A stretch of 64,000 nucleotides of DNA, from NCBI GenBank assembly GCA_963846575.1, contig CAWJWJ010000002.1, positions 1,216,001 through 1,280,000 on the forward strand, written 5' to 3'. Numbering within the stretch: position 1 is the first letter of the stretch; every line of letters starts with the position of its first letter. The notes under the pieces were generated by a model, which saw only the letters and a program-made list of their open reading frames with translations, did no database searches and was not told the origin of the DNA. This document shows positions 5,921-37,460 of the stretch, piece after piece. The position numbers and the translations under genes were made by a program. This DNA comes from an uncultured Nitrospiraceae bacterium. Its GTDB lineage: Bacteria > Nitrospirota > Nitrospiria > Nitrospirales > Nitrospiraceae.

Positions 5921-6160
5921 ATGGTACAGGACGAACGCGAAGACACGACGATCTACAAGGTAGTGGTGAATCATGAAGAGCAATATTCCATCTGGCCCTC
6001 CTATCGGGACAATCCCCTCGGGTGGACGGACGCGGGGAAAACCGGGCTCAAGGATGAGTGTCTGGAATACATCAAGGAGGTCTGGACGGACATGCGGCCG
6101 TTGAGTTTGCGGAAGTGGATGGCGGAGCAGGCGGACGATAAGACGGCCTCCTCATGCTGA
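5921..6160 (+). CDS. mbtH: MbtH-like protein
   Basis: [13 protein letters not shown]...GW...[18 protein letters not shown]. Strong RBS GAGGAGG before ATG 5921. Confidence 0.95.
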
Positions 6161-6978
6161 GCGCCGCGCGAGCACAACCCTGGATCGTCACCTGCCGCGA
6201 AGCGGCGGGGCCTCGATTGGTCTGCATCCCGTACGCCGGCGGGGGACCGTCGGTGTTCCGTGGGTGGCCGCAGCATCTTCCGGAGGACATCGAACTCTGC
6301 GCCGTGCATTTGCCCGGCCGGGAGGCGCGCATGGGCGAGGCGCCGATCAGAGATCTCACACGGCTGGTCGGGGACCTCGCGGAGGTGATCGAGCCCTGTC
6401 TCGACAGGCCGCTCGCGTTCTTCGGGCACAGCATCGGCGCGCTGATTGCGTTCGAACTCGCGCGCGAAATCCGCCGCCGTTACGGAGCGACGCCGGTGCA
6501 TCTCTTCGTGTCGGGCTGCCCCGCGCCGCACCTGCCCGATCCGGACCCGCTTCATGATCTACCGGAGGACGACTTTCTGGAGCGCATGCGCCGATTCAAC
6601 GGAACTCCACGGGAGGTGCTGGAACATCCGGAAATGATGCAACTCATGCTCCCGGCGCTGCGAGCGGATTTTTCCTTGCGCGACACCTATGCGCATGCCG
6701 CGGAACATCCCTTGAGCTGTCCGATTTCCGCCCTGGGCGGAATGCGTGACGACTGCGTCGGCACGGAACAGATGGACCCATGGAGGGAGCATACCTCCGG
6801 AACATTTCAGTTGTGGTTGTTCCAAGGCGACCACTTCTTTCTGCGGACCGCTCAGGCCGCCGTGGTCGAATGCCTGGCTGCGGCATTGCGCCATCAAGGG
6901 AAGGAGGAGGGGATCGTCCTGCAGACAGGGACTCTGCCGCAGGCGGCGAACAGCGAAGGAGTGCGTCAACCGGGCTGA
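6154..6978 (+). CDS. Type II (editing) thioesterase
   Basis: PYAGG, LPGRE, GHSIG nucleophile elbow, LRADF, GDHFFL. Confidence 0.92.
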
Positions 6979-7003: not shown

Positions 7004-8047
7004 GTGGACATGCACGATGAATCTCGCGCGGCCTTTGCCGCGACCGCGTCCTCTGATGCCGACAGCCAGGTGGAATCGCGTTTCTCGACGAGTTTCCTGG
7101 ATTCAGGGCGCCGGCTGCCGTTGGTCCTGACGGCGACCGCGGGGCGTGAGATCGGTGCGTTTCTGCCGGCGGCTCATCGCGCCGCGGAGCGGTCCCTCCA
7201 TATCCATGGCGGGCTGTTGTTCCGAGGGCTGCCGCTGGCGACCGCCTCCGATTTCGAGTTGTTCGTGAAGGCGTTCACCCCATCGATGATTGCCTATGAG
7301 TTCGGATCGACCCCGCGCTCTCAGGTACAGAACCAGGTCTATACGTCCACGGAGTATCCTCCCCATCAACATATCCCGTTGCACAATGAGCAAGCCTATA
7401 CGACCGAATGGCCGATGAAGATCTGGTTCTACTGCGGACAGCCTGCCGCGGAGGGCGGCTGTACGCCCATTGCGGACAGCCGCGAGGTGTTCGCGAGGAT
7501 TCCGGCCGCCATTCGGGAGCGGTTCATCCGGAAGCGGGTGATGTACGTGCGGAACTACGGCAACGGTCTCGATGTGCCCTGGCAGAAGGTGTTCAACACC
7601 GGGGATCCTGGTGCGGTGGAACGGTTCTGCCGGAAGAATCAGATTCTCTTCGAGTGGAAGGCGGATGGGGAACTCAGGACGAGGCAGATTGCGCAGGCGG
7701 CGGCCGTACATCCTCATACCCGTGAGCAGGTGTGGTTCAACCAGGCGCATTTGTTTCACGTGTCGAATCTGGAGCCAGCCGTTCGAGAGGCGCTGCTGGG
7801 CGCCGTAAGCGAGGAGGATCTTCCTCGCCATGCCTATTATGGAGACGGGACCGCGATCGAGACCGGCCTGTTGGATGAAATTCGGGAGGTCTATCGCGGC
7901 GCATGCGTCCAGTTCGCCTGGCGGCGAGGCGATGTCCTGATGCTGGACAACATGCTGGCGGCGCATGGTCGGACGTCCTTCACGGGCAAGCGGCAGATCC
8001 TGGTGGCGATGGCGGAATCGTCGGAGGCGTCGCAGGCATGCCGATGA
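7004..8047 (+). CDS. TauD/TfdA (SyrP-like) Fe(II)/2OG dioxygenase, probable stand-alone aspartyl beta-hydroxylase
   Basis: VYTSTEYP, IPLHNEQAY (HxE), VWFNQAHLFH, DNMLAAHGR. The cluster has an Asp-coded A domain. Confidence 0.85.
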   Translation: MDMHDESRAAFAATASSDADSQVESRFSTSFLDSGRRLPLVLTATAGREIGAFLPAAHRAAERSLHIHGGLLFRGLPLATASDFELFVKAFTPSMIAYEFGSTPRSQVQNQVYTSTEYPPHQHIPLHNEQAYTTEWPMKIWFYCGQPAAEGGCTPIADSREVFARIPAAIRERFIRKRVMYVRNYGNGLDVPWQKVFNTGDPGAVERFCRKNQILFEWKADGELRTRQIAQAAAVHPHTREQVWFNQAHLFHVSNLEPAVREALLGAVSEEDLPRHAYYGDGTAIETGLLDEIREVYRGACVQFAWRRGDVLMLDNMLAAHGRTSFTGKRQILVAMAESSEASQACR

Positions 8048-11000
8048 ATGACGAGAGCGCCGTCAACGAGACGCCATGCACCGGCGCGACGGAAGTCGAC
8101 CAGTACGTCTTTCCGATGAGCTGTGCCCAACGCCGTTTGTGGTTTCTCTCGCAGCTGGAGCCTGAGAGCGCCGCCTACAACACGGCGATCGCCGTGCGGA
8201 TGCGGGGATGTCTCGACCGGGAGGCTGTGGCGAGTGCGTTCAATGCCATGGTGCGCCGCCACGAAGTCCTGAGGACGACCTTTGCCACGCATGAGGGCGA
8301 GCCCGTCCAGATTATCGCCGCGGAGGGTGCGGTGGATCTCGACGTGGTGAGCCGGTCCGGCGATCGAGGCGGAATCGAGCAGGCTGTTACCGAAGAAGCG
8401 CGACGTCCGTTCGATCTGTCGCGTGGTCCGTTGATTCGCTTGTGCCTGCTCCCACTGCATGAAGACGATCATGTCCTGGTGGTCACGCTCCATCATATCG
8501 TCTGTGACGGATGGTCGGCGCAGATCCTGGCGCGGGAATTCGTCTCGTTGTATGGAGCCGCGATCACGGGGTCGACGTCGCCCTTGCCGCCGTTGCCGAT
8601 CCAATATGCGGACTATGGAGAATGGCAGCGTCAGTGGCTGCAAGGGGCGGTGCGGGAACGCCAACTGGCCTATTGGAAGCGACAGTTGAGCGGCGAGCTG
8701 CCGGTGCTGGAACTGCCCACGGACCGCCCGCGAGCGGCAGTCCAGGACTCGTCCGGCGGCCGGTCAGTCTTTACCGTCCCTCCCGGGCTTGCGAGGGAAC
8801 TGTCGGCGCTGAGCCGACGGGAAGGCGTGACGTTGTTCATGACGCTGCTGGCGGCCTTCCAGGTATTCCTGCTCCGGTATACGGGTATCCACGATATCTG
8901 CGTCGGCACGCCGGTGGCATGCCGGACAAAGCGTGAGACGGAAGACCTGATCGGGTTTTTTGCCAATACGCTCGTCCTGCGCACCGACCTCTCGGAGAAT
9001 CCGTCATTCCGGGAACTGCTCGCGCGGGTCCGGGAGGTGGTCCTTGGCGCTCAAGCGCATCAGGACCTTCCGTTCGAAGAACTGGTGGAGTTGTTGAAGC
9101 CCGCCCGCGCCTTGAGCCACCACCCGCTCTTTCAAGTCCTGTTCGTCCTACAGACGGCCTTGACTCAGGCCGTTCGGCTTCCACAGCTGTCCGTCGACGT
9201 GCAGGAGGTGGATGTCGCGGCAGCGAAGTTTGATCTCTCGCTCGACATGGCGGAATCGGAACAGGGGTTGGAAGGAGCGTTCGAATACAGCCGCGATCTG
9301 TTTGCGCCGTCCACTATCGAACGCATGACGGACCAGTGGCTGCGGCTGCTTGAAGGAGTCGTCGATGATCCGGAGACACGGCTGAATGAACTGCCGTTGA
9401 TGTCAGAGGCGGACTACGACCGGAGCGTGGGGGAAATGGACGAGTGCGATTCCTCCGTCCCCGGCAGGGCCGGATTCGCAGAACTGTTCGAGGCGCAGGT
9501 CGAACAGAGTCCCGATGCCGTTGCGGTCGTCCGGCAGACTCACTCCATGACCTACCGTGAATTGAACGCCGCCGCCAATCAGGTGGCCCACGCCCTGACC
9601 GAAGCCGGAATAGGGGCAGATTCGATCGTGGCGGTGCTGGAGCCGCGCGGCATTCCCTTACTGACGATGATAGTGGGAATTCTCAAGGCGGGAGGCGTCT
9701 ATCTGCCACTTGATCCAGCCCACCCTCCGGCCCGCTGGAGTCACCTCATCGAGCTGAGTCAGGCGAGAGTCGTCCTGACGGCGGAATCATACCGGGGAGA
9801 GCTGCTCGGTGCATGCACCGGGCTGTCGGAATCGGGCGGCACGCCGGTGCTGACGATGGACCGGATCCTCGCCGTGCGCCCCGCTCATGGCAACCCGCGT
9901 CGGCCGTCATCGCCGGATCAACTGGCCTACGTCATCTATACCTCGGGTTCCACCGGCCTGCCGAAAGGCGCCATGGTGACGCAGAGTGGGCTCATCAATC
10001 ATCTGATGAGCAAGGTTGAGATCTTGGGATTGAACGCCGACACGGTGATCGCACAAACCGCCTCCTGCTGTTTCGACATTTCGGTCTGGCAATTTCTTGC
10101 CGCGCTGGTGAGCGGCGGCCGGACGTTGATCGTTCCCGATGACATTGCGCGCGATCCTGCGGCCCTGTTGTCCTGTCTCGAGCAAGGCGGGGTGACGGTG
10201 GCCGAAACCGTTCCCGTGCTGCTGCAGGGGATGCTGGATGCGCTGTCGAATTCCACCGTGCCCGGGTTGCATAGACTCGGATGGATGCTGCCGACGGGAG
10301 AGGCGCTTCCGCCGCAGCTCTGCCGTGCCTGGTTACAGCGGCTTCCGGATGTCCCCCTGATGAATGCCTATGGGCCGGCCGAATGCGCGGATGACGTGGC
10401 CATGGCTCCCATCATTTCGTCGCCCGCCCCCGAACAATTGTGGATGCCGATCGGCAGGCCTATCCGGAACGTCCGGCTCTATGTCGTCGACCAGTGGCTG
10501 GCGCCGGTGCCCGCGGGTGTTCCCGGAGAGCTCTGCGTCGGGGGCATCGCGGTGGGACGGGGGTATTTGCAGGATCCCGCGCGGACCGCCGTCTCGTTTG
10601 TGCCGGATCCGTTCGGCACCGTGGCCGGGGCTCGCCTCTATCGAACGGGTGATCGGGTCCGCCGGCGCGCCGACGGAAACCTGGAATTTCTCGGACGGTT
10701 CGATCACCAGGTCAAACTGCGGGGCGTGCGCATCGAGTTGGGCGAAATCGAGTCCCGCCTGCGCGACCTCCCGGACATTCGGGATGCCGTCGCGGTCCTG
10801 CGCGAGGATAGCCCGGGCCACAAACGGTTGACTGCCTATGTGGTGACGTCCGCGGCACAGGAGCATCAGACTGACCTCTGGCGGGCCGCCCTGTGCAAAC
10901 ATCTGCCCGATGCGATGGTGCCGGTTTGTTTCGTCATTCTGGAGGCGCTGCCCCGTACGGCCAACGGCAAGGTCGATCGTTCGGCCTTACCTGTCCCCGA

Positions 11001-14000
11001 ACGGGAGAGCAGGCGCGGGTATGTCGCGCCGCGGACGGCCGAAGAACAGACCCTGGCCGGGATCTGGGCCGACCTGTTGGGCATCGACCGGGTCGGAGTC
11101 GAGGATAATTTTTTTGAACTCGGCGGAGATTCCATTCTCAGTCTGCAGGTAGTCCACCGGGCCAGACAGCAACAGATTCATCTGACTCCACGAGATCTTT
11201 TCCAATATCAAACGGTGGCGGAGCTGGCTGCCTGTGGATCCTCACGGCAGGACCGGGAGGAGGCGTCTCGAAAACCTGCCATGGTCGGCGAACTGGTTCA
11301 GGAGGACACCCTCGCCATAGCCCGGCGTACCTGTCCCGATCTGGAGGATCTGTATCCGCTGAGTCCATTGCAGCAGGGGCTTTTGTTTCACAGCCTCTAC
11401 GCGCCGCAATCCGGCGTCTACATCGAACAGATGCATTGCCGATTGCGGGGAGCCCTGGATGGCTCCTCGTTCGCGCTGGCCTGGCGGCGTCTTCTGGACA
11501 GGCATGCGGTGCTTCGTACGAGATTCATGTGGCAGAACGTGACCTCGCCGGTGCAAATCGTACTGCCGTCGGCGGACCTCCCCTGGCTGGAACTGGATTG
11601 GCAGGACTGCCCCCGTCACGAGCAGGAGGTTCGCCTGCGAGAGTTGATCGAACATGACCGGCGGCTCGACTTCGATTGTGAACGTGCTCCGCTGATGCGT
11701 CTGGCACTGATCCACGTCGCAACGGACAAATATGAGGTCGTCTGGACCCACCATCACATCCTCATGGACGGTTGGTGTCTCCCGATCCTGTTGAAGGAGG
11801 TTCTGAACGACTATCACATGATCCGGTCCGGCGGACATCCGGCGCCGGTTCGTCCCTCGCCCTATCGGGATTATATCGCCTGGCTCCAGCGACCGGATCA
11901 CAGCGGTTCGGAAACGTTCTGGCGGGCCACCCTCAAAGGATTTACCACTCCCAGCCGGTTGGCTGATGACACGCCTGCCGATGCCTCCCATGAACCACAG
12001 GACCAGGGGCTGTTCACCCTGACGATCACGCCGTCGGTCGCTGCCGCGATCCGTACCAGTGCCCGGCGATGCCATGTCACGGAAAACACCCTGGTGCAGG
12101 GAGCATGGGCGCTTCTGCTCAGCCGGTACAGGGGTGAGACGGACATCCTCTTCGGCACGACGACCTCCGGACGATCGGCCGATATCCCCGGCATCGAATC
12201 GATGGTCGGTCTCTTCATCAACACGCTGCCGCTTCGCCTGTCCGTGCCGCCGGATGCGGTCGTCGATCAATGGCTGAGAGGGATCCTGAAACGGAATAGC
12301 GAGTTGCGAGAGCATGAACAGAGTGCTCTCGCACAGGTTCAAGGATGGAGCGAGGTAGCTCGCGGACAAGCGCTGTTCGAGAGTCTGATCGTGTTCGACA
12401 ATCACCCGACCGATGGCACGTTGGAAGAAGGTTCCTCCGGACTGGTCGTCGAGCAGACCACGCTGCGTGGACAAACGAACTATCCGTTGACGCTCAACGT
12501 ATGGCCTGGAGCTGAACTGACCGTGGCCTTCTCGTATCAACGGCCACGGTTCCGGGCTGAGGTCATCACCAATATCGCACGTCACTTCGAGACGTTGTTG
12601 ACGGCCCTGGTCGAAACGCCGCAGGCACGCCTGGCGGACCTTCCGTTGCTGGGGGCGGCCGAGCGGGCGCAGGTGGTGAAGGAGTGGAACCGCTCGGCGC
12701 GGGCCTATCCCACGGCGCGCCCGGTGCCGGCCCTGATCGCGGCGCAGGCGGAGGCGACCCCGACGGCCGTCGCCCTGCGGGCCGATGCCGGCGCGCTCAC
12801 CTATGGCGAGTTGCTGGCGCGCTCGAACCAGGTCGCGCAGCTGCTGCGCCGGCAGGGGGTAGGGCCGGAGACCCTGGTCGGGATCGCGATGGAGCGTTCG
12901 CTGGATCTGGTGGTGGGGCTGCTGGGCATCCTGCAGGCGGGGGCCGCCTACGTGCCGCTCGATCCGGGTTATCCGCCCGAGCGGCTGGCCTACATGCTGG
13001 CCGACAGCCAGGTCAAGACCGTGCTGACGCACGAAGCCCTCCTGCCGCAGCTCGGCTTTGCCGGGCCGACCCTCTGCCTCGACCGCGACGCGGCACTCCT
13101 GGGCCGGCAGCCGACGACCGCGCCGTCGGGCCATCTCACTGACCGGCACCTGGCCTATACCATCTATACCTCCGGTTCGACCGGCCGGCCCAAAGGCGCC
13201 GGGAACACCCACGGCGGCCTGCGCAATCGGCTCCAGTGGATGCAGGAGGCCTATCCCCTGACCGCCGCCGACCGGGTGCTGCAAAAGACCCCGATCAGTT
13301 TCGACGTCTCCGTGTGGGAATTTTTCTGGCCGCTCATGGTGGGCGCAGAACTCGTGCTGGCCGCACCCGGCGAACACAAGGACCCCGCCGCCCTGATCAC
13401 CCGCATCGTAAACCAGGGAGTGACCACACTGCATTTCGTGCCGCCGATGCTGCAGGCCTTCGTGGAGACGCCGGGCGTCGAGCGCTGCCGCTCGCTGCGG
13501 CGGATCATCTGTAGCGGCGAAGCCCTGCCGGCGTCCCTGCCGCCGCAGGTGGCCGGGCGGTTACCGGCCGCACGGCTGGAGAATCTCTACGGGCCGACGG
13601 AAGCGGCCATCGACGTGACCGCCTGGAGTTGTCCGCCGACGGAAGCCGTCCTGCCCGTGCCCATCGGACGGCCGATCGCTAACACGCAGATCTACGTACT
13701 CGACCACCAGGGCCATCCGTTGCCCGGTTGGGGTGCCGGGCGAACTCTACATCGGCGGGGCCGGGGTGGCGCGCGGGTACCACCGCCGGCCGGAGCTCAC
13801 GGCCGCGCGGTTCGTGCCGGACCCGTTTGCGGAGACCCCCGGGCAGCGGCTCTACCGGACCGGCGATCGCGTGCGGTACCGGGCGGATGGCGCGATCGAG
13901 TATCTGGGGCGGCTGGATCACCAGGTGAAGATCCGGGGGTTCCGGATCGAGCTGGGGGAGATCGAGCAGACGCTCCGGCAGCAGGCGGGGATTCGCGAAG

Positions 14001-14575
14001 CCGTGGTGGTGGCGCGAAACGAGGGAGCGGGGACGAGCCGGCTCGTCGCCTATGTGACGCTGGAGTCCGGGGCGACCTGTGAGGCGGCCGCCTTGCGGCA
14101 GGCGCTGGGTCGCCGGTTGCCGGACTATATGGTGCCGGCAGTCATCGTGCCGCTCGCGCAGCTGCCGTTGAGCCCGAACGGCAAGGTGGACCGGCGGGCC
14201 TTGCCGGAGCCGGAGGCGGAGCGCCAGGCGCGGACGGTCTATGTCCCGCCGCAGACGGAAGTGGAAGAAACCCTGGCGGCCATCTGGGCGGCGGTGCTCG
14301 GGCTGCCGGAGGTCGGCCGCGACGACAACTTCTTCGAACTCGGCGGGGATTCGATCAACAGCCTGCAGATTCTGGCCAGGGCCCATCGAGCCGGCGTGAC
14401 GCTGACGCCGAAACAGCTCTTCGACCATCCGACGATTGCGGCTGCCGCGGCTGTGGCGGTGGTCGCCGATGGCGATGCGCAGGGGGCGTCGACGGACGCG
14501 GCCGAAGCGTCCCGTCTGGCTGATGTCGAGTTGACGGACGAGGACATGGAGAACTTACTCGAAGAAATCGGATAG
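8044..14575 (+). pseudogene. NRPS 1, C-A(Dab)-T-C-A(Ser)-T, interrupted by a +1 frameshift at about 13723-13727 (true lesion or sequencing error)
   Basis: ORF 7903..14082 loses NRPS sense after DHQGHPLP, and ORF 13733..14575 continues with (V)PGELYIGG. Paralogous modules read PVPVGIPGELY, so one extra base is present in ttgcccggttgggg. Removing it gives a 2176-aa ORF from ATG 8044. A codes DIWELTADDK and DVWHISLIDK. Confidence 0.85.
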
Positions 14576-14584
14576 GGGAGACAC

Positions 14585-21070
<6,486 letters not shown>

Positions 21071-21071
21071 C

Positions 21072-24000: not shown

Positions 24001-27000
24001 CCCGATTGGCCGGTCAATTGCCGGACTACATGATCCCCCATGCGTTCGTGACTCTCCCGGCGTTCCCACTGACGACGAATGGAAAGGTCGATCGGGCGGC
24101 GCTTCCGGATCATACGGGACAGCACGTCCTGCGAAAGTCGGAGCATGGTGCGCCCCGTAATCCGACTGAGGAGCGCTTGGCCGAGATCTGGCGAGAGGTG
24201 CTCCATGCGGACGAAGTCGGAAGAGACGATAATTTTTTTGACCTTGGCGGCGATTCCATCTTGAGCCTGCAGATCATTGCGCGGGCACGCAAACGAGACA
24301 TCCTGCTGACGCCGAAACAGCTCTTCGAGCACCAGACCATTGCCTTGCTGGCCGCTCTGCCGGGAATACACACACTTGATTCGCAACCGTCCCTGGCCTC
24401 AGCCGATCACGGGCGGCGAGCGCCCCTCTCCTATGCCCAGCAGCGACTGTGGTTTCTCTGGGAGATGGACCCGACGAATGCCGCCTACAATGTGTGGCAT
24501 GCGGTGCGGTTGAAGGGAACCCTCAAGGTGGAGCGACTGCGGCGCACCTTCGATGCGATCGTGTCCCGCCATGCAACCTTACGAACGACCTTCGGCACGG
24601 ACGGCGGGCAGCCGTATCAAGTCATCCATCCCGCGGAGCCCGTCGATATGGTCGTGACGGATCTCACCGATGGTCCCCCGGCCGAGCGAGAACAGCAGGC
24701 CAGGGCGATGGTCGAGGATGAAGGGCGGAAACCGTTCGATCTCAAACGCGGCCCCCTGCTCCGGGTCACCGTCCTGAAACTCGATGAGGGCGATCATCTT
24801 CTCACGGTCGCGATGCACCACATCGTCTCGGACGGTTGGTCGATGAATATCATCATGGAGGAGTTTGCCTCTCTCTACGAAGCCTACGGCTCCGGTCGTG
24901 AGCCGGCCTTGCCTCCCCTGCGTATTCACTATGTGGATTTTGCGGTCTGGCAGCGACGGTGGCTGGAAGCAGGGGAATTGGACCGGCAGCTGCAATATTG
25001 GAAAGGTCGGCTTGGAACGGAACATCCTCCGATGCCGTTGCCCGCCGATCGTCCGAGGCCGGCGGTGCAGCGCTATGAGGGCGCAAGTTCCCAGTTTGAA
25101 ATCGAACCAGACCTCACGAGCCGGCTGAAGGCATTGGCCAAATCACAGGAGGCCACCCTGTCCATGCTGTTGCTCACGGCCTTCAACATTCTCTTGTACC
25201 GTTACACGGGCGAGGTCGACGTACGCATAGGGATGCCGGTGACCAACCGGACTCGGGTCGAGTCGGAGGGATTGATCGGCTGCTTCGTGAATACGCTGGT
25301 GATACGGACCAATCTATCGGGCAATCTGACTGTCGCCGAATTCCTGCAGCGGGTCAAAGCGGAGGTTCTGGAGGCGCAATCCCACCAGGATCTGCCGTTC
25401 GAGCGATTGGTCGAGGCGCTGAACCCGCAGAGAAGTCTCGCCAGTCATCCGCTCGTTCAGGTGGTCTACAACCATCAATGGCGGAAGTACGACGTGCTGC
25501 AGACGTTGACCGATCTGAGCATCGAGAGCCTTCCCTATGAGGGCGACCGCACTCAGTTTGATCTCGTGCTGGATACGGAAGAGACGGCGGGACAGGTGTT
25601 CGCGTCGCTGACATACAGTACGGCCCTCTTCGAGCGCAACACCATAGAGCGTGTGGCAAGACACTGGATCACCTTGCTGGAGGGAATGGCGGAGAACCCG
25701 TGCGAGCGGATTGATCGGGTGTCGATCCTCACGAGAGAAGAGTCCGCTCATGTGATGCAGGAGTGGTCCGCACCATCCTGTGACCTGTCCGGTGCGCCAT
25801 GTCACCAATTGATCGAGGCGCAAGCCGCTTCTCAGCCCGATCGCCCGGCGGTGGTCTTTGAGGAGACGGTGCTCACGTACGGTGAGCTCAATGCCCGGGC
25901 CAATCAACTCGCGCACCTCTTGCTCCGTCACGCTGTCGGTCCGGATGTGCTGGTGGGCATCTGCCTGGAGCGTTCGCAGGATCTGCCGGTGGCCATGCTG
26001 GCGGTCTGGAAGGCGGGCGGGGCATACGTGCCACTCGATCCCTCGTATCCAAGAGAACGACTGGCCTACATGCTCGACGATGCACGCATGCCGGTGGTGC
26101 TGACCCAAGAGAAACTACGCGACGCCGTGGCCAGACCGGGCGTGCACCCGGTCTGCCTGGACGATCCGGAGCAATGGGCGTCGGAATCACGGAGCAACCC
26201 TGCCGCCCGGCGAAGTTCTAACGCCCTGGCCTATGTCATCTACACCTCGGGATCGACCGGCCGGCCCAAGGGGGTCATGATCCGGCACTCGAGCCTGGTG
26301 AATTTCCTGCTGAGCATGCAGGCGACGTTACGTCTGACTGCCGACGAGGTGGTGGCGGCCACGACGTCGGTCTCCTTCGACATCGCCGTGCTGGAACTCT
26401 TCCTGCCTCTATTGGCCGGGGCCAGGACGGTCGTGCTCAGTCGAGAGGTGATCGTCGATGGAGAGCGGCTGTCTCAAGAACTGGTCCGGGCCGGTGCGAC
26501 GCTCATGCAGGCGACCCCGTCGGGTTGGCGCATGTTGCTCAACGCGGGGAGCAGCCCCCGGCTGCGCGTGCTCTGCGGCGGGGAGGCATTCCCGCGGGAG
26601 TTGGCCCGGGAGTTCCTGGCGAATGATCTCGAGACGTGGAATCTCTACGGCCCGACGGAAACGACCGTGTGGTCGATGATGACCCCTGTGACCGGGGCGG
26701 GGGAGGCGGTACCCCTCGGCCGCCCGATCGCCAACACCCAAATCTATCTCCTCGATGCTGCCTTGAACGTGGTTCCGGTCGGGGTGCCCGGGGAGCTCTA
26801 TATCGGCGGGGACGGGTTGGCGCGAGGCTATTGGCAGCGGCCGGACCTGACCGCGGAGAGATTCGTGCCCGACCCCTTCGGGCGCGAACCGGGCGGCCGG
26901 CTCTATCGAACGGGCGATCAGGCACGGTATCGATCGGATGGGACGGTGGACTTTCTCGGGCGTGTGGATCACCAGGTCAAACTCCGTGGCCATCGCATTG

Positions 27001-29063: not shown

Positions 29064-30105
29064 TCGGAAGGCGATCAGCCTCTCTCAGGAAGATCTTGTC
29101 ACGGCCACACCTCTCATGCCCGGACAGGTGGTGCCGCTGCTGATCCAACCATCGGTGAAGGGGGTCAGTCTGCTGGCCTGGGCCGGGCAGAACCGGGATC
29201 GGATCCAGGAACTGGTGCTTCGGCATGGCGCAATATTATTCCGGAACTTCAACCTCGCGGGCGTCGCTGAGTTCGAGCAATGCGTCAAGGCGGTCTCCGG
29301 CGGGGCCCTCGAATATAAGTTCCGCGCCTCGCCGCGGACGCAGGTGGGGAAGAATATTTATACGGCTACCGACTATCCGGCCGACCAGAGCATCTTCCCT
29401 CACAATGAACATGCCTTTTCCGCGATGTTTCCCCTGCAGCTGTACTTCTACTGCGCCGTGGCGGCGCCGGAGGGCGGGGAGACACCGATAGGCGACACGC
29501 GCGCGCTGCTCCGCGGACTGGATCCCCGCATCAAGGAGCGATTCCTGCGAAGGAAGATCATGTACGTACGAAATTATGGCGACGGGTTTGGGCTCCCCTG
29601 GCAAACCGTCTTCCAGACGGAGGACAGAGGGGATGTCGAAACCTACTGTCGCAATATCGGCATCGAGGTGGAGTGGAAGTCCGGGAATCGACTGCGGACC
29701 CGCCAGGTCGGCCCGGCGATCATGCGCCATCCGCGCACGCAGGAGCCGCTGTGGTTCAACCACGGCACGTTCTTCCATGTCTCGACATTGGAACCGGCAA
29801 TCCGCGAGGCGCTGCTGAAAGAATTTGCCGAGGAGGATCTTCCGCAGAATACCTATTACGGAGATGGCACTTCGATCGAGCCGGACGTGCTCGAGCATCT
29901 GCGTGCCCTCTATCAGCAGGCCATGGTCCTGTTTCCCTGGCAGCAGGGGGACGTGGTGTTTCTCGACAACATGCTGGCCCTCCATGCCCGCAGGCCTTTT
30001 GCCGGACCCCGGAAGGTCCTGGTGGCCATGGCCGAAGCCTGCCGGAGTGCCGATCTTGAAGTAAGTCTAAAGGAGGAACTGTCATGTCCGGATCCGAAAC
30101 CGTGA
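29011..30105 (+). CDS. TauD/TfdA (SyrP-like) Fe(II)/2OG dioxygenase, probable histidyl beta-hydroxylase
   Basis: IYTATDYP, IFPHNEHAF, LWFNHGTFFH, DNMLALHAR. Lies between the terminal C domain of NRPS 3 and the degenerate C domain plus His module of NRPS 4. Start is 29011 (GAGG RBS) or 28990. Confidence 0.82.
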   Translation: MTDVTRQSHDIRTFTRADRKAISLSQEDLVTATPLMPGQVVPLLIQPSVKGVSLLAWAGQNRDRIQELVLRHGAILFRNFNLAGVAEFEQCVKAVSGGALEYKFRASPRTQVGKNIYTATDYPADQSIFPHNEHAFSAMFPLQLYFYCAVAAPEGGETPIGDTRALLRGLDPRIKERFLRRKIMYVRNYGDGFGLPWQTVFQTEDRGDVETYCRNIGIEVEWKSGNRLRTRQVGPAIMRHPRTQEPLWFNHGTFFHVSTLEPAIREALLKEFAEEDLPQNTYYGDGTSIEPDVLEHLRALYQQAMVLFPWQQGDVVFLDNMLALHARRPFAGPRKVLVAMAEACRSADLEVSLKEELSCPDPKP

Positions 30106-33100
30106 AGCATACAGTCCAGGGCTATCGCCTGTCGCCCACACAGGAACGGCTATGGCTTCTGGAACGGAGCAGCCCACAGGCGCGCCTTGAGGGCCATTGC
30201 ATCGTCGCGGTCACGGGGCCCCTGGATCCGGGGGTGTTGAGAACCGCTGTCCGGCAGGTCGTTCAACGCCATGAGATTCTCCGGACGACCCTCCGGAGCA
30301 TTCCCGGCATGATGTTTCCCGTGCAGGTCATTGCCGACGAAAATGTCCTCGCCTATGAGGAGCAGGACCTGACCGCGAACCGGACGCGAGAGCGGGACGC
30401 CGTGATCGGCCCGCTCCGGCCGGCCACCTGCGACGACCGGCCGGATGCGGCGGGTACGCCGGTGGTGCGCATCATCGTCAAGAGAATCGAGGCGGCCAGG
30501 CATGAAGTGCAGATCAGCCTGCCGGCATGTTGTGCCGACGGAATCACCTTGAAGAACCTGGTGCGCGAAATCAGTTCAGCGTACCGGTCTCGTCTCCGGG
30601 CTGAAGCGGTAGAGATGGACGAGCCGCTGCAGTATGCCGATGTGGCCGAGTGGCAGCAGGCGCTACTGGAGGATGAGGCCGGGGCTGCCGGACGGGACTA
30701 TTGGCGCAAGCAGGCCGGGCCGATTGCTGCCTGGCTCGAAACCCGGCTGCCTGGCGAGCATCCGGCGGCCGAGAGGACGGTATTTACTCCACGAGAGGTC
30801 CCTGTTCCCGTCTCCCGGGAGTCGGTTGAACGCCTGGATGATCTGGCCGCACGGCAGGGCATCTCCGGTTCGAGCTGTTTGCTGGCCTGCTGGGGCATCC
30901 TGCTCCAGCGTCACATCGGACAGGCGGACGTTCTCATCGGTGTGGCGAGTGACGGCCGACCGCACGGGGAGATGCAGGACGCTTGCGGCGCCTTCGCGAA
31001 GTACCTGCCGCTCCATCACGCTTCCGAACCAGGCACGCAATTTGATGCGTATGCGCAGACTCTGCAACGACGGTGGCTCGAGCTTGACGAATGGCAGGAG
31101 TATTTCAGCTGGAAGGATGTCCAGGACCTGGTGGATCCCGCTCACGATCCCTTCTTCCCCTTCTGTTTCGACTACGGCGACCTGGCGTCGTCCTGCTCCG
31201 GCGACGAGGGTCTCTCGTTCAGGGTCGAGCAGAGCCATGCCTATATCGATCGCTTCAAAATACGTTTCCGGTGCGCGCGAAAGGGCGACGTGATCGAGGC
31301 AGCTTTGCATTATGATGCCGGGCTTTATCAGGAGCCCATGATCGCCTGCCTGGCAGGACAGTTGGCCACGTTGCTGGATCATGCCGCGCGGCACCCGGAA
31401 AAGGCCGTCGACGATCTGGAGATGGTGAGCGAGGCGGAGCGTCATCGCGTGCTCGAGATTTTCAGCCGGGAAGGCGTCGGGGCGGGCGGCGACGACCGTT
31501 GCCTGCATCACCTGTTCGAGGCGCAGGTTGAGCGGACACCGGAGCGCATCGCCCTTCTCCATGAGGGCCGGTCAGTGACCTATCGCGACCTGGATCGGCG
31601 GGCCAATCAAGTTGCGCGCTATCTGACCAGCCGGGGAGTCGGCGCGGGAACCATGGTCGGACTCTGCATGGAACGCTCGCCCGACCTGATCGTGGGGATC
31701 GTGGGTATTCTGAAGGCGGGCGGCGCCTATGTCCCGATCGATTCGGCCTATCCCAAGGAGCGCATCGTCTATCTCCTCCAGGATTCCCGGGCAGCTCTGG
31801 TTCTGACTCAGGCAAGGTTTCAGGAAGGGCTGACCGAACTCGGCGCTGTCGTCCTGAGCCTGGATGGAGAACGCGAGACCATCGAGGAACACAGCGGGAC
31901 GACTCCCTCGATTCCTTTCACTGCGGCCGGCGCGGCCTACATGATCTATACGTCCGGTTCGACGGGGAAACCGAAAGGCGTGCCGGTGAGCCACCGGAAC
32001 GCGGTGCACTCCACGCGCGCGCGGCTCGGCTATTACGACGGTGCCGTCTCCTGTTTCCTGCTGCTGTCTTCCGTGGCATTCGACAGTTCCGTCGCCGGCA
32101 TTTTTTGGACTTTGAGCGGAGGCGGCACGTTGTGTCTCCCCGGGGAGGGAGTACAAAAAGCTCCCGTCGAACTCGGCGTCCTTATCGAACGGGAACAGGT
32201 GACGCATGTGCTGTGCCTTCCCTCTCTATATTCATCGTTACTGGGGGAGGTGCCGGTACACCAACTGCGCTCGCTCCGGACGGTCATCGTGGCCGGCGAA
32301 AGCTGCCACCGCGATTTGGTGGCGCGGCACCATGCTCATCTGCCGGGGACGCAGCTCTGTAACGAATACGGCCCGACGGAAGGGACGGTCTGGAGTAGCG
32401 TGTACCAGTGCCGGCAGCCGGAAGGGAATACGACCGTGCCGATCGGCCGGCCGATTGCCGGAGTAAGCATCTATCTCCTGGATCATGGCTTGAGACCGGT
32501 TCCCATCGGGATTCCCGGCGAATTGTGTATTGCCGGAGCAGGCCTGGCCTCGGGGTACCATAACCGGCCGGCCCTGACCGCGCAGAAATTCATCCCCGAC
32601 CCCTTCGGATCGGCTGCCGGAAGCCGTCTGTACCGGACCGGTGATCTGGCACGCTACCGGCCGGATGGAAACATTGAGTTTATCGGACGCCGCGATCAGC
32701 AGGTGAAGCTCCGCGGCTATCGCATCGAACTGGGGGAGATCGAAGCACGGCTGCTCGAGCATCCGGAGATAGAGGAAGCCGTGGTGCTTCTCCGCGAGAG
32801 CCGCGCCGGGGAAACGCAGCTGGTGGCCTATCTCGTCTCCAAACAGGCGGCACTCAAGGCTCCGGTGGTGAAGGAGTATCTGAAGGCCAGCCTGCCGGAA
32901 TACATGGTTCCCCCGACGATCGTCTTCCTGGGTGCCTTGCCACTGAGCCCCAATGGCAAGGTGGATCGAAACGCGTTGCCCGCGCCGGATGCCGGGACTG
33001 CCCTGCTGGAAAGGTACGAGGCACCTCGCACGACGACGGAGGAACTCCTGGCCGGGATCTGGGGCGATGTGCTGCAGGTGCCCCGGGTGGGGGCGGGTGA

Positions 33101-36100
33101 CAATTTTTTCGACCTGGGCGGCCATTCCCTGCTTGCGACGCAAGTGATGGCGAGGGTGCGGGAGGTGTTTCAGATGGAGGCGCCTGTGCGCCTCCTCTTC
33201 GAGACGACTTCCGTGGCGGAGCTGGCCCGGGTGCTGGACTCGTTCCGCTGCCGGAGGCCGGGCCTCGACGCGCCGCCGCTCGTACCGATCAGGCGAGAGG
33301 AAGCAGCGCCGCTCTCCTTTGCGCAGCAACGCCTGTGGATCCTGGCTCAGTTGGATCCGGAGGGGACGGCCTACAATATTCCGATCGCATTGCGCGTCAC
33401 GGGCCCATTGAATCTGGCCGCCCTGGAATGGAGCTTTCATGAACTCGTCGCACGCCATGAGGTGCTGAGAACGACCTTTCAGACCACGAAGGCCGAGGCA
33501 GTCCAAGTCATCGCGGCCTCTCTCAGGGTTCCGCTACCGGTGATCGATCTGCAGCACGTCCCCGAACAGACTCGCCTCGAAGCGGCGATGCGTCTGTCTG
33601 AAGCGGAGGCGAACCGGCCGTTCGAGTTGCAATATGGTCCGCTTGTGCGGACCAGTGTCATTCGGCTGCAGCCGGAAGAACACGTCCTGCTGGTGAGCCT
33701 GCACCATATCGTGTCGGATGCCTGGTCTGCCCGGATTCTGGTCCATGAAATGAGCCTGCTTTACGAAACGTCTCTTCACGGCGGGGCATCGACGCTGCCG
33801 GAGTTGCCGATTCAGTATGCGGATTTCGCCATCTGGCAACGCAGCTGGCTGTCGGGCGATGTGCTCGAACGGGAGTTGTCGTATTGGCGGCAGCTGTTGG
33901 GAGGAGATCTGCCGCAACTGGAGTTGCCCACGGATCGACCGAGGCCTGCGGTTCACAGGACCCACGGAGCCACCCTGTCATCGCTGCTGCCCGGAGATCT
34001 ATCAGCCGCCCTGAGAGAACGTAGCCGCCGTGCCCGCGCGACGGTGTCCATGCTGTGCCTGGCGACCTTCTCGTTGTTGCTCTCGCGCTATTCAGGACAG
34101 GAAGACCTCGTTGTGGGGACGCCGGTGGGCAATCGCACTCGCCGCGAGCTGGAGCCATTGATCGGGTTTTTTGTGAATACCCTGGCCCTGCGCATCAACC
34201 TGTCCGGCAATCCGACGGTCGACGAGGTCGTGGCGCGGGTGCGGGACGTGTGCCTCGGGGCCTATGCGCACCAGGAGGTCCCCTTTGAAAAGCTGGTAGA
34301 AGTGTTACAACCAGCGCGACAGCTCGGCGCCTCCCCGATCTTCCAGGTCATGTTTGATTTTCAGCATGCTTCCGCTGAACCGCCGGAAGTGCCCGGGTTG
34401 CGGTTTGCACCCTTGGCCGCCGTCACGCACACCGCCAAATTCGATCTATCAATGACCGTCGCGGACCGGGGCGCGGAGTTTGAGGTGAGCCTCGAATACA
34501 ACACCGATTTGTTCGAACCCTCCACCATCGGACGTATGGCCGCTCACTTCCAGTCGCTCCTCGACGCGGTCGTGACCAGGCCGCAGCAGCGACTGAGCGA
34601 GCTCGCGCTGATGGGGGCGGAGGAGCGGGTGACGGTGGTGGAAACGTGGAATCAGACGGCGCGCGCCTATCCGACCGACCGGACGGTGCCGGACCTGATT
34701 GCCGCCCAGGCGGTGCGAACCCCCACGGCAGTGGCCGTCCGGGATGGCGAGAAGACGCTGACCTACGCGGCGCTGCTGGAGCGGGCGAATCAGGTGGCGC
34801 AAGCCATTCGGGCCCACGGGGTCGGGACGGAGTCCCTGGTTGGTATCGCGCTGGAGCGGTCGCTGGATTTGGTGGTGGGTCTGCTGGGGATTTGGCAAGC
34901 CGGGGCGGCCTATGTGCCGCTGGACCCGAGCTATCCGTCGGAACGGCTTGCCTACATGCTGGCCGATAGCGAAGCCGCGCTGCTCCTGACGCAGACGGGG
35001 CTGGGCGTACGGGTGTCCTTCGCCGGGCCCACCTTGTACGTGGACCGGGATTGGCCGCGCATTGCCACCTATCCGCCGGTGGCTCCCGACGGCGAACGCC
35101 CGGACGAGGCCCTGGCCTATGTCATCTATACATCGGGGTCGACGGGGTTGCCCAAGGGGGCCGGTAACACGCACGGGGCGCTGCGCAATCGTCTTCAGTG
35201 GATGCAGGAGGCCTATGGGCTGACGGCGGCCGACCGGGTGTTGCAGAAAACCCCGATCAGTTTCGACGTGTCCGTATGGGAGCTCTTCTGGCCGCTGCTC
35301 GTCGGGGCCGAGCTGGTTCTGGCCGCCCCGGGCGAACACAAGGATCCGGCGGCGCTGATTGAACGCATCGTGCGGACCGGGGTCACGACGTTGCATTTCG
35401 TGCCGCCCATGCTGCAGGCGTTTCTCGAGTCGTCCGGGGTCGAGCGCTGCCGGTCGTTGACGAGGATCATGTGCAGCGGTGAAGCCTTGCCGGCGGATCT
35501 TCCGCCGCTGGTGCATCGGCTTTGGCCAGGGGCGGGATTGCACAACCTCTACGGGCCGACCGAGGCCGCCATCGATGTGACCGCCTGGGCCTGTCCGCTC
35601 CAGGCGGGGAGCACCGTGCCCATCGGGCGTCCGATCGCTAACACGCAGATCTATGTGTGTGATGCAGAGGGAGAGCCTGTTCCCATAGGGGTACCGGGCG
35701 AGCTTTATATCGGGGGCGTGGCCGTCGGGCGGGGTTATCACCGGCGGCCCGCGCTCACGGCGGAGCGTTTTGTGCCGGACCGGTTCAGTGCGAACCCGGG
35801 CGCGAGGCTCTATCGCACCGGCGATCTGGTGCGATCCCGGCCAGATGCCGCCATCGAGTATCTTGGCCGCCTGGATCACCAGGTGAAGATTCGAGGAGTC
35901 CGGATCGAGCTGGGGGAGATCGAGCAGACGCTGCGTCAACAGCCGGGGATTCGAGAGGCCGTGGTTGTGGCGCGTGGCGACGGGCCTAAGCAACTGGTGG
36001 GGTATGTGACGACGATCCCGGAGACGGCCGTGGACTGTGCGGCGCTGCGGCAGGCATTGGGGCGGACGTTACCGGACTATCTCGTGCCGGCGGTGATCGT

Positions 36101-37280
36101 TCCGATGCCGCACCTGCCGCTGAGTCCGAACGGCAAGGTGGACCGCAAAGTCTTGCCGGCTCCGGATCTGGGGAGTGCGCTCACGAATCGTTACGTGGCC
36201 CCGCGGACTGTCCGGGAAGAAATGCTGTCGACACTATGGGCTGAGGTGCTGGGACTGTCCCGTGTGGGGATTCATGACAACTTCTTCGATCTGGGCGGGC
36301 ACTCTCTCTTGGCGGTGCGACTCGTCTCTCGATTGCAACAGTCGATCGGTCGCCCTATCTCATTGATGTCGGTCTTCCAACATCCGACCGTAGCGACATG
36401 GGCGGACTACTGCGACGGTCTCGAGGACGAACGTCCCTCGCCGTTACGATCCATACAGCCAGCTGGTTCTCGTCCCCCGTTGTACTGCATCGACCCCACC
36501 GGGACGCATGTGCTCGCGTACCGGCCCTTGGCCTATGCGCTGGGGGAGGATCAACCGGTCTACGGCATCACCCTGAGCCGGATCTTTTCAATGTCGTGGA
36601 CTGACCTTTCGATCGCGCGGATGGCGGCGGAGTTCGCGCGTGAGATCCGACATCATCAACCGACGGGGCCCTATCGATTGCTGGGATGGTCGAATGGCGG
36701 GGCCATGGCCCTGGCAATCGCTCAGGCGTTGGAATGTCAAGGAGAAGTGATCGAGTTCCTCGGGCTTCTGGATACGCAGCCCCCTCTGGAGACTCATGCC
36801 GGCGGGCATGTCGAGATCATCGATGAAATGATGGCTTACATTTCGCGCGAACGCCGCGAAACGTTTTTTTCCCTGCCCGACACAGAACGGCAGGCGCTTC
36901 GCACGCAGTTAATGCAGCTCAACGAGGAAGATCGGCTCGTCCACGCGATTCGATGGGCGCTCGCCCACGGATTATTGTCTGCCGAAGAATCACAGGCCTC
37001 GGTTGAGGCGCTCAAGATCGGGTACGCCCTGGGAAGGAGCACAATCTGCTTCCTGCAGGCATTCCAACCCGGAACCCTTCACGCCCCGCTCTCGGTTTGG
37101 TGGACCAGCGACACGCTCGGGCGGCATGGCCGGGCTCCGATCGACTGGCAGCGATACACCCGTGGGGAAGTATCCAGTTACTCCGTTACCGGTGATCACA
37201 GGGATGCGGTGCAGAGCATTCAGGTGCATCAAAAGATCGACGAGATTCTGCGCGGGCTCCGCGCGGAGGAGTGTGAATGA
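30084..37280 (+). CDS. NRPS 4 (terminal), interface-type C*-A(His)-T-C-A(Ser)-T-TE
   Basis: The first C-like domain lacks the catalytic His (LPACCADG). Codes DSALIAEVWK (His) and DVWHMSLIDK (Ser). TE motif GWSNG with late GDH. RBS AGGAGG. Confidence 0.92.
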   Translation: MSGSETVKHTVQGYRLSPTQERLWLLERSSPQARLEGHCIVAVTGPLDPGVLRTAVRQVVQRHEILRTTLRSIPGMMFPVQVIADENVLAYEEQDLTANRTRERDAVIGPLRPATCDDRPDAAGTPVVRIIVKRIEAARHEVQISLPACCADGITLKNLVREISSAYRSRLRAEAVEMDEPLQYADVAEWQQALLEDEAGAAGRDYWRKQAGPIAAWLETRLPGEHPAAERTVFTPREVPVPVSRESVERLDDLAARQGISGSSCLLACWGILLQRHIGQADVLIGVASDGRPHGEMQDACGAFAKYLPLHHASEPGTQFDAYAQTLQRRWLELDEWQEYFSWKDVQDLVDPAHDPFFPFCFDYGDLASSCSGDEGLSFRVEQSHAYIDRFKIRFRCARKGDVIEAALHYDAGLYQEPMIACLAGQLATLLDHAARHPEKAVDDLEMVSEAERHRVLEIFSREGVGAGGDDRCLHHLFEAQVERTPERIALLHEGRSVTYRDLDRRANQVARYLTSRGVGAGTMVGLCMERSPDLIVGIVGILKAGGAYVPIDSAYPKERIVYLLQDSRAALVLTQARFQEGLTELGAVVLSLDGERETIEEHSGTTPSIPFTAAGAAYMIYTSGSTGKPKGVPVSHRNAVHSTRARLGYYDGAVSCFLLLSSVAFDSSVAGIFWTLSGGGTLCLPGEGVQKAPVELGVLIEREQVTHVLCLPSLYSSLLGEVPVHQLRSLRTVIVAGESCHRDLVARHHAHLPGTQLCNEYGPTEGTVWSSVYQCRQPEGNTTVPIGRPIAGVSIYLLDHGLRPVPIGIPGELCIAGAGLASGYHNRPALTAQKFIPDPFGSAAGSRLYRTGDLARYRPDGNIEFIGRRDQQVKLRGYRIELGEIEARLLEHPEIEEAVVLLRESRAGETQLVAYLVSKQAALKAPVVKEYLKASLPEYMVPPTIVFLGALPLSPNGKVDRNALPAPDAGTALLERYEAPRTTTEELLAGIWGDVLQVPRVGAGDNFFDLGGHSLLATQVMARVREVFQMEAPVRLLFETTSVAELARVLDSFRCRRPGLDAPPLVPIRREEAAPLSFAQQRLWILAQLDPEGTAYNIPIALRVTGPLNLAALEWSFHELVARHEVLRTTFQTTKAEAVQVIAASLRVPLPVIDLQHVPEQTRLEAAMRLSEAEANRPFELQYGPLVRTSVIRLQPEEHVLLVSLHHIVSDAWSARILVHEMSLLYETSLHGGASTLPELPIQYADFAIWQRSWLSGDVLERELSYWRQLLGGDLPQLELPTDRPRPAVHRTHGATLSSLLPGDLSAALRERSRRARATVSMLCLATFSLLLSRYSGQEDLVVGTPVGNRTRRELEPLIGFFVNTLALRINLSGNPTVDEVVARVRDVCLGAYAHQEVPFEKLVEVLQPARQLGASPIFQVMFDFQHASAEPPEVPGLRFAPLAAVTHTAKFDLSMTVADRGAEFEVSLEYNTDLFEPSTIGRMAAHFQSLLDAVVTRPQQRLSELALMGAEERVTVVETWNQTARAYPTDRTVPDLIAAQAVRTPTAVAVRDGEKTLTYAALLERANQVAQAIRAHGVGTESLVGIALERSLDLVVGLLGIWQAGAAYVPLDPSYPSERLAYMLADSEAALLLTQTGLGVRVSFAGPTLYVDRDWPRIATYPPVAPDGERPDEALAYVIYTSGSTGLPKGAGNTHGALRNRLQWMQEAYGLTAADRVLQKTPISFDVSVWELFWPLLVGAELVLAAPGEHKDPAALIERIVRTGVTTLHFVPPMLQAFLESSGVERCRSLTRIMCSGEALPADLPPLVHRLWPGAGLHNLYGPTEAAIDVTAWACPLQAGSTVPIGRPIANTQIYVCDAEGEPVPIGVPGELYIGGVAVGRGYHRRPALTAERFVPDRFSANPGARLYRTGDLVRSRPDAAIEYLGRLDHQVKIRGVRIELGEIEQTLRQQPGIREAVVVARGDGPKQLVGYVTTIPETAVDCAALRQALGRTLPDYLVPAVIVPMPHLPLSPNGKVDRKVLPAPDLGSALTNRYVAPRTVREEMLSTLWAEVLGLSRVGIHDNFFDLGGHSLLAVRLVSRLQQSIGRPISLMSVFQHPTVATWADYCDGLEDERPSPLRSIQPAGSRPPLYCIDPTGTHVLAYRPLAYALGEDQPVYGITLSRIFSMSWTDLSIARMAAEFAREIRHHQPTGPYRLLGWSNGGAMALAIAQALECQGEVIEFLGLLDTQPPLETHAGGHVEIIDEMMAYISRERRETFFSLPDTERQALRTQLMQLNEEDRLVHAIRWALAHGLLSAEESQASVEALKIGYALGRSTICFLQAFQPGTLHAPLSVWWTSDTLGRHGRAPIDWQRYTRGEVSSYSVTGDHRDAVQSIQVHQKIDEILRGLRAEECE

Positions 37281-37384: not shown

Positions 37385-37460
37385 TGGTGCGCCCGACAGG
37401 ACTTGAACCTGTAACCCCCAGATCCGTAGTCTGGTGCTCTATCCATTGAGCTACGGGCGC
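37385..37460 (-). tRNA. tRNA-Arg (anticodon ACG), CCA encoded
   Basis: Reverse complement GCGCCCGTAGCTCAATGGATAGAGCACCAGACTACGGATCTGGGGGTTACAGGTTCAAGTCCTGTCGGGCGCACCA: 76 nt cloverleaf, anticodon arm CCAGA-CTACGGA-TCTGG, T loop GTTCAAG. Confidence 0.97.

Follow-up and report, generated by a model that had tools for sequence, protein, structure and literature searches.

A hybrid peptide-polyketide gene cluster in a Nitrospira-like bacterium, predicted to make an uncharacterised hydroxyaspartate and hydroxyhistidine siderophore

Introduction

What does the nonribosomal peptide synthetase (NRPS) line of an uncultured Nitrospiraceae bacterium make, and is this copy of it still at work? The window analysed here, a stretch of 64,000 nucleotides (assembly GCA_963846575.1, contig CAWJWJ010000002.1, positions 1,216,001 to 1,280,000), holds eight NRPS modules at 8044..37280 that an original prediction had read as the source of a plain octapeptide, probably a siderophore. 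We propose that these modules form the peptide half of a 48-kb hybrid FAAL-NRPS-polyketide synthase (PKS)-NRPS gene cluster for an acylated, likely deacylated, iron-binding peptide, a reading that we consider probable. The eight-residue part of the octapeptide therefore stands, and the octapeptide as the whole product does not, because the assembly line begins 10.6 kb upstream of the window with a FAAL, an Arg module, a methyltransferase (MT) and the PKS. That the cluster family as such makes a product of the siderophore type is, in our judgement, very probable. Our argument draws on domain order, adenylation codes, gene neighbours and distribution in the family, and it is from these that the biosynthetic steps are inferred.

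Results

The host genome (4.2 Mb, 2 contigs, 99.9% complete) is that of a Nitrospira-like organism, as had been supposed from the flanking genes, since its near homologs with names (70-83% identity) are Nitrospira, Nitrospirales or Nitrospirota. The eight adenylation (A) domain codes read earlier by hand, DIWELTADDK, DVWHISLIDK, DIWELTADDK, DVWHISLIDK, DLTKIGHVGK, DILQLGLVWK, DSALIAEVWK and DVWHMSLIDK, were all recovered by motif reading and, separately, by profile alignment, and the thioesterase (TE) after the last module is present, with the motif GWSNGG. From reference codes we take them to specify diaminobutyrate (Dab), Ser, Dab, Ser, Asp, Gly, His and Ser, and PvdL-type and corrugatin-type modules, where identical codes occur, support these assignments. 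The parts of the cluster that lie in the window, with C, T and E for condensation, carrier and epimerization domains, are the following.

1..327, plus strand: C-terminal acyl carrier protein (ACP) of the KS-AT-KR-ACP PKS, encoded by a gene that begins 4,241 nt upstream of the window
332..2104, plus strand: cyclic-peptide export ABC transporter of the PvdE/SyrD type (TIGR01194, 495.6 bits against a cut-off of 286.2)
2101..3507, plus strand: diaminobutyrate-2-oxoglutarate transaminase, PvdH-like, for Dab supply (NF005393, 756.8 against a cut-off of 671)
3495..5897, plus strand: Ntn-hydrolase acylase with a hydrophobic stretch at the N-terminus, predicted to remove the acyl tail (PF01804, E 7.5e-168)
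5801..6160, plus strand: MbtH-like protein, true start probably later (PF03621)
6154..6978, plus strand: type II thioesterase (PF00975)
7004..8047, plus strand: stand-alone TauD-family hydroxylase, predicted Asp beta-hydroxylase (PF02668 and tree)
8044..14575, plus strand: NRPS-A, C-A(Dab)-T(GGDSI)-C(DCL type, no E)-A(Ser)-T(GGDSI), with a +1 frameshift at about 13723-13725
14585..21070, plus strand: NRPS-B, C(HHILLDEW, 14642-15949, Dab-accepting clade, predicted amidine-forming)-A(Dab)-T-C-A(Ser)-T
21108..29063, plus strand: NRPS-C, C-A(Asp)-T(GGDSI)-C-A(Gly)-T-C, with a C domain last and an approximate start codon
28990..30105, plus strand: second stand-alone TauD-family hydroxylase, predicted His beta-hydroxylase
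30084..37280, plus strand: NRPS-D, degenerate interface-type C (30108-31421, no HH motif)-A(His)-T-C-A(Ser)-T-TE
37385..37460, minus strand: tRNA-Arg(ACG), 3' end toward the cluster, taken as the right boundary, with a GC drop from 63.5% to 58.6%

Directly before the window stand a FAAL-T-C-A-MT protein of 1919 aa, a 216-aa protein made of an A subdomain and a T domain, and the KS-AT-KR-ACP protein. The divergent upstream genes are araC, tonB, an ECF sigma factor, fecR, a TonB-dependent receptor and PepSY, of which the receptor with its STN domain, FecR and TonB were recognised by Pfam and the ECF sigma factor and AraC by reading of the sequence. The locus thereby combines a coding sequence with C and A domains and linked TonB-dependent uptake genes, two of the marks by which the antiSMASH rule of Reitz et al. 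recognises nonribosomal peptide metallophores, the other mark being a hit to a TBH_Asp, IBH_Asp or IBH_His profile. Together with the exporter, the acylase (which scores far under the PvdQ equivalog cut-off, 49 against 950) and the hydroxylases, these receptor genes are in keeping with the predicted siderophore function. A product whose main ligand is a metal other than iron (Cu, Zn, Ni), or a cationic lipopeptide acting as antimicrobial or surfactant, appears very improbable to us. In favour of such a product, only two hard O/N ligands are encoded, Arg, Dab and His give a cationic character, genes for an RND system of the CusA/CzcA type are found 12 kb downstream and variochelins are described as inhibiting Gram-negative bacteria (accessible text of PMC10999976). 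Against it, the RND genes stand past the tRNA boundary, most relatives carry two hydroxyaspartates (OH-Asp) instead of hydroxyhistidine (OH-His), and the FecR/ECF/STN-type TonB receptor, PepSY and PvdE/PvdH/PvdQ-like genes match siderophore loci.

The supply of Dab and of two beta-hydroxylases, claimed earlier, is confirmed by the transaminase, which scores over its cut-off, and by the two TauD genes at 7004-8047 and 28990-30105. The first TauD protein falls together with the stand-alone enzyme encoded in a corrugatin-type cluster of Pseudomonas (tree, support 0.99) and is predicted on this ground to act on Asp. For the second, 80 loci with a homolog, among them Nostoc, Chloroflexia and Acidobacteriota records, were read for the next A domain, whose code is DSAL(I/V)AEVWK in 63, another code in 7 and out of reach in 10. 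Tree position and neighbouring A code thus agree in the predicted hydroxylase assignments, and beta-OH-Asp and beta-OH-His, proposed as ligands in the original prediction, hold up. The second enzyme sits in what is reportedly defined (Reitz, 2019) as the interface-type cassette for His beta-hydroxylation, its elements following one another in order: terminal C domain, TauD, degenerate C-like domain and His A domain. By the stereochemical rules said to come from the same source, the stand-alone enzyme would give L-erythro Asp and the His enzyme the L-threo form. This is the only TauD-bearing NRPS cluster of the genome. The absence of an Orn hydroxylase extends from the window to the whole 99.9%-complete genome, where neither PF13434 (Lys/Orn monooxygenase) nor IucA/C (PF04183) had a match while the positive controls matched, so that neither a hydroxamate nor an NIS route was found; this search of the whole genome did not extend to catechol genes.

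Of the 371 genomes of the family, 42 have a match to the second TauD, this one included (31 of the 224 of high quality), or about one in nine, and clusters were annotated in 20 of the 41 other matching genomes, which are cited here by our G numbers. They follow a common template, Arg[±MT]-PKS-Dab-Ser-Dab-X-Asp-Y-Asp/His-Z, in which X, Y and Z vary; G091 and G101 are two modules short, and G084, G098 and G266 are rearranged. All 20 keep the PKS (only its ends in G080 and G138), the ABC exporter, the acylase, the Dab transaminase, the stand-alone TauD and the Asp module. Most relatives carry two OH-Asp modules in place of OH-His, the His form being found in four of the 42 genomes (G000, which is this genome, G197, G198 and G259). 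In a search with the His A domain that scored just four candidates per genome, only G197, G198 and G259 stood at 67% identity and all other matches at or below 54%, and none of the 38 same-genus genomes carried it. The TauD and interface domains of the His-form genomes group together (supports 0.995 and 0.999), which suggests that one His cassette has moved between genera. The cluster as a whole has probably moved to its present site as well, to judge from the boundary tRNA-Arg with its GC drop and from the lack of this tRNA in the stretch of any relative.

No E domain occurs anywhere in the cluster, a point on which the original prediction was silent. Three carriers nevertheless show the GGDSI motif, and two C domains after them are of the type that joins a D donor to an L acceptor (DCL), despite the lack of an E domain. 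In 19 of the 20 relatives (G242 is too fragmented to be read) an E domain follows the residue before Asp; on sequence grounds, this carrier and the next C domain are replaced by L-type parts in the present cluster.

The C domain that opens NRPS-B (HHILLDEW) finds its best match, in two Pseudomonas genomes, in the last C domain of a FAAL-led NRPS of 4350-4380 aa with the architecture of PvdL. After two Dab domains of the LCL type (L donor) and one exception in G084 had been set aside before the common ancestor was taken, 22 of 23 Dab-accepting DCL-type C domains formed one exclusive clade (support 0.997 in a 158-domain tree; SH-aLRT 99.8 in an IQ-TREE analysis of 61 domains), whose members include the NRPS-B domain, the two PvdL-type last modules and the corrugatin-type Dab modules. 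The corrugatin-type cluster of G373 has two such domains, and its residue order minus two waters, with a C8 tail and an Orn that we assume, gives an MH+ of 1012.469. The mass of 1012.46 reported for ornicorrugatin from another strain (available part of PMC12971057) is fitted only after two water losses, and the Tyr-Dab step of PvdL is described as forming a tetrahydropyrimidine (PMC9569983, in the text at hand). On account of the clade, the PvdL ring and the ornicorrugatin mass, one Ser-Dab amidine ring is likely here, the first Dab module having an ordinary LCL C domain; the Dab-clade domain may itself catalyse the closure.

A plain linear, all-amide peptide with neither ring nor methyl group, made by a line whose DCL-type domains are left over from E domains since lost, would account for the E-less DCL-type domains found also before Ser and Gly in such clusters, for the E domain that G266 has at its first module and the others miss, and for the absence of the MT from 8 of the 18 relatives with the starter in view. 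We hold this to be improbable, because the Dab-accepting domains, whose motif is altered to HHxxxD-(A/E/D)-W, form a clade of their own that is separate from the remaining E-less domains, and because the ornicorrugatin mass needs two dehydrations.

The starter adds a ninth A domain, upstream of the window, with the Arg-like code DVENVGSITK; its best single-domain match in the PDB is ApnA A1 (407.7 bits), which presumably activates Arg/Tyr. The MT domain, which matches 23 of the 371 family genomes, finds four sequences of guanidinoacetate methyltransferase (GAMT) and nothing else in the PDB (best E 7e-27), and a Glu and an Asp in it align with GAMT Glu45 and Asp134, residues to which we attribute functional roles. 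No guanidino type is among the six M types set out in the accessible part of PMC8341866. From its HAFH motif, the AT is predicted to use malonyl. In the KR, Ser stands at the catalytic position held by Tyr in solved KRs and in 18 of 18 other family KRs, and the domain is likely inactive here; since the KR is deleted in G084 and G098 and a Sorangium homolog also lacks the Tyr, loss of the KR recurs.

A doubt about the state of this copy arises in NRPS-A. Compared with all the paralogs and orthologs aligned, its sequence has one base more in the CCC run at 13723-13725, which puts the subdomain and the carrier of the second module, the one for Ser, in another frame and had been missed earlier. 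A screen flagged six frameshift sites: this one, two in the secA region, one at a gene junction and two in antisense frames only. The sole secA copy (G000:C1:1195207-1197919) is frameshifted near 1197170, probably through an assembly error, so that the assembly holds indel errors. Five soil DNA runs have shares at or below 0.10, and among the contigs of four runs no listed piece extends across 13723. If the siderophore cluster were such by descent only, this copy having been inactivated recently, the organism would keep the receptor and use the siderophores of others. The frameshift at about 13723 and the change of Tyr to Ser in the KR speak for this, as does the low indel rate of the genome (1 ambiguous case among 159 orthologous genes over 200 kb), at which an error within 48 kb is not strongly expected. 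Against it stand the frameshifted secA, the recurrent KR loss, the intact state of all other cluster open reading frames (ORFs) and the number of private changes at otherwise invariant columns, 45 here within a range of 4-86 across 14 genomes and thus no excess. We consider recent inactivation rather unlikely; the frameshift in NRPS-A is more probably an assembly error, and in the same measure we believe this copy to be functional.

Further observations were made on the cluster and its surroundings. Gene conversion of the Ser A domains was considered for this cluster and rejected (78% DNA identity, no repeat of at least 95%); Ser A-domain copies of about 1.7 kb that are 99.7-100% identical exist within G063, G066, G103 and G080 (L033-L038, L044-L046, L082-L083), while G242 has copies of the Arg type and G084 has repeats in the Dab region. 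Beside the tRNA-Arg, a 562-aa protein with two BACON domains is encoded on the minus strand (37580-39268). It is followed, also on the minus strand (40940-43979), by a DEAD/Helicase_C/DSHCT helicase that is split into two genes whose order is reversed, with the C-terminal half (42117-43979) ahead of the DEAD half (40940-42013); since 5 of 5 family genomes tested have the same split and order, the split is natural and no assembly error. Past the cluster boundary lie a PotABCD-like polyamine ABC transporter and the CusA/CzcA-type RND efflux system (45653-55267), and then, on the minus strand (60592-63914), threonine-synthase-like, MoeB/ThiF and JAB protease genes in series, which resemble a sulfur-carrier pathway. 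Elsewhere in the genome, a second FAAL-led NRPS of two modules (3171-aa frame, G000:C2:1088410-1100412) is close to the sole PF01648 phosphopantetheinyl transferase, and similar frames of about 3090 aa are widespread in the family. A search of the genome for ammonia monooxygenase gave no match, and its positive control likewise gave none.

Discussion

In the pathway that we propose, the FAAL would load a fatty acid and the split A domain Arg, whose guanidino N-delta would be methylated by the GAMT-like domain. The PKS would then add malonyl to give a 4-amino-7-guanidino-heptanoyl unit, 3-oxo here with a KR lacking its catalytic Tyr and 3-hydroxy in most relatives. Eight modules would follow, in the course of which the C domain of the second Dab would dehydrate Ser-Dab to a tetrahydropyrimidine ring, the stand-alone TauD would hydroxylate carrier-bound Asp, and the second TauD, docked via the interface-type domain, would hydroxylate His. 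After release of a linear acid by the TE and export by the ABC transporter, the acylase would remove the tail, and the ferric complex would re-enter the cell by the FecR/ECF-coupled TonB receptor; export and deacylation are described for pyoverdine (PMC9569983) and cyanochelin C (bioRxiv 2026.07.24.740629) in the portions available of these papers. The product would be all-L, there being no E domains, and its exact structure can be put forward only tentatively as acyl-[Me-Arg+C2, 3-oxo]-Dab-Ser=Dab(amidine)-Ser-OH-Asp-Gly-OH-His-Ser-OH. The calculated MH+ of its deacylated form, with the methyl group, the 3-oxo function and one amidine, is 1015.455; reduction would raise it to 1017.471, loss of the ring would give 1033.466, and lack of the methyl group would lower each value by 14.016, while the forms with a C12, C14 or C16 acyl tail are calculated at 1197.62, 1225.65 and 1253.68. 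Fe(III) would be bound by OH-Asp and OH-His, and the third site is most likely the polyketide-extended unit, an assignment in which we have moderate confidence because the PKS is kept in 20 of 20 relatives, in which the residue that it extends and the one at the terminus vary, and because the gamma-amino acid of crochelin is reported to chelate iron (PMC7947814, a review, in its accessible text).

Several findings weigh against this proposal. The cluster encodes no more than two bidentate ligands of the canonical kind, and the third is a proposal. The C domain after the first Dab is DCL-type though no E domain supplies a D donor, for which we offer no explanation, and one Dab-accepting DCL domain, in G084, falls outside the Dab clade. 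In about 30 of the 69 proteins scored, the homolog of the MT follows a code other than that for Arg, so that the methyl acceptor of the GAMT-like domain is not certain. Of the 19 family KRs, this genome's alone has the Tyr to Ser change. As to regulation, a Fur-like palindrome precedes the transport operon, with a consensus chosen after the site was seen; upstream of the FAAL, the Fur-like palindrome is shared by 1 of 16 relatives and is not conserved in the other 15. Together with a motif TGCAAG-N14-GCGTCT found 70-74 nt ahead of the FAAL domain in this genome and in 4 of 16 relatives, it gives weak hints. Finally, the frameshift in NRPS-A, if real, would stop the line after the first Dab.

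Parts of the assembly line are familiar from several systems. Corrugatin, ornicorrugatin and histicorrugatin of Pseudomonas (BGC0002422, BGC0003174) are likewise NRPS peptides primed with a fatty acid and containing Dab, Ser, OH-Asp and OH-His, with the same C / TauD / interface-A cassette, a stand-alone Asp hydroxylase and Dab-clade C domains, such a C domain being found in one of the two Dab modules here; the D-Xaa-OHAsp-Dab-OHAsp end that the corrugatin-type cluster of G373 shows is found again in the majority form of Nitrospira. In contrast to that type, the present cluster has an Arg-PKS starter, an acylase, two hydroxylated residues instead of three, no E domain, OH-His near the C-terminus, a Gly spacer and an extra terminal Ser. 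Membership in the corrugatin family was rejected, the starter being acyl-Arg-PKS-Dab and not acyl-OH-His-Dab, and the hydroxylated residues one Asp and one His. The extension of a fatty acyl-amino acid by one PKS module to a gamma-amino acid, together with OH-Asp, is shared with variochelin (Variovorax; BGC0002417), where the amino acid is Arg, and with crochelin (Azotobacter; BGC0002001); the fatty acid-Arg-PKS starter of the variochelin type, described as acyl-Arg-PKS in the available text of PMC10999976, is present here. Compared with both, the present line has a malonyl and not a methylmalonyl AT motif, an embedded GAMT-like MT, a likely inactive KR, Dab and OH-His, and no hydroxamates (no Orn oxygenase match); the methylmalonyl extender and hydroxamate-Orn residues of the variochelin family are absent here, to judge from the HAFH motif and the lack of a PF13434 match. 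With the pyoverdine pathway it has in common the accessory set PvdH, PvdE, PvdQ, MbtH and type II thioesterase and the C-domain clade before Dab in PvdL. Pyoverdine itself was rejected, the PvdL starter Glu-D-Tyr-Dab being absent; no PvdP/PvdO-like gene is among the annotated ORFs of the cluster, so that no chromophore is expected.

Two further clusters are similar in part. That of Sorangium sp. So ce1078 (L106) likewise has FAAL-C-A-T, KS-AT-KR-T, an acylase, a stand-alone TauD, Asp-T-C-Dab with a Dab-clade C domain, a TauD and interface-A(His)-TE, and differs in its Asp-type starter, its E domains and its His in last position; no product was found for it. Acylase-bearing clusters with a Dab-clade C domain and a His-type TauD were noted outside Nitrospirota in the same strain (L204-L206) and in a Methylotetracoccus metagenome-assembled genome (MAG; L210-L211). 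In corallorazine Crz1/Crz2, according to the part of PMC11342130 available, the A domain also ends after an MT inserted behind A8, with A9-A10 and T on the next gene, and this split A domain was shown to be active; there the MT is a type I backbone N-MT acting on Gly, whereas here a GAMT-like MT would act on a predicted Arg.

The cluster is uncharacterised and combines known parts in a new way. It belongs to a group of clusters found across the family, to which published work on N. japonica has already drawn attention. The accessible texts of Reitz et al. (bioRxiv 2022.12.14.519525; eLife PMC12971057) predict a novel OH-Asp siderophore for that species and flag 15 of 307 Nitrospirota genomes; the likeness, of the same genus-level group and of chelator chemistry, rests on that published description, itself a prediction. 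The residue order, which the original prediction could not match to a described compound, is shared by none of the 20 annotated relatives, and none of the 78 reference biosynthetic gene clusters listed in the portion seen of the eLife supplement (PMC12971057) is from Nitrospira. No characterised Nitrospira siderophore or structure appeared in the literature searched, most subscription papers being outside its coverage.

Conclusion

Nitrospira are major nitrifiers with iron-rich enzymes. In the available text of PMC12781328, they are among the dominant siderophore-producing genera in MAGs from treatment plants. Could Nitrospira harbour a family of shuffled PKS-NRPS siderophores, in which N-delta-methyl-arginine gives rise to the third ligand, a deacylated gamma-amino-beta-oxo (or hydroxy) unit, the OH-Asp and OH-His cassettes are swapped between genera, and a Dab-accepting, DCL-derived C clade closes the tetrahydropyrimidine of pyoverdine and corrugatin without an E domain? 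Taken as a whole, this is a speculative picture that we hold to be less likely than not. The predicted cluster family itself extends OH-His chemistry, described as limited to select Proteobacteria among the genomes mapped in the part seen of Reitz et al. (bioRxiv 2022.12.14.519525), beyond them, and it offers natural module swaps around a fixed core. Two candidate enzymes are open to test: a methyltransferase of the guanidino type that lies within an A domain, and the C-domain clade proposed to close the amidine ring. The OH-Asp ligand predicts a photoreactive ferric complex (PMC10999976, as far as accessible), and the cluster family supplies exact masses that may be sought in its cultured members.

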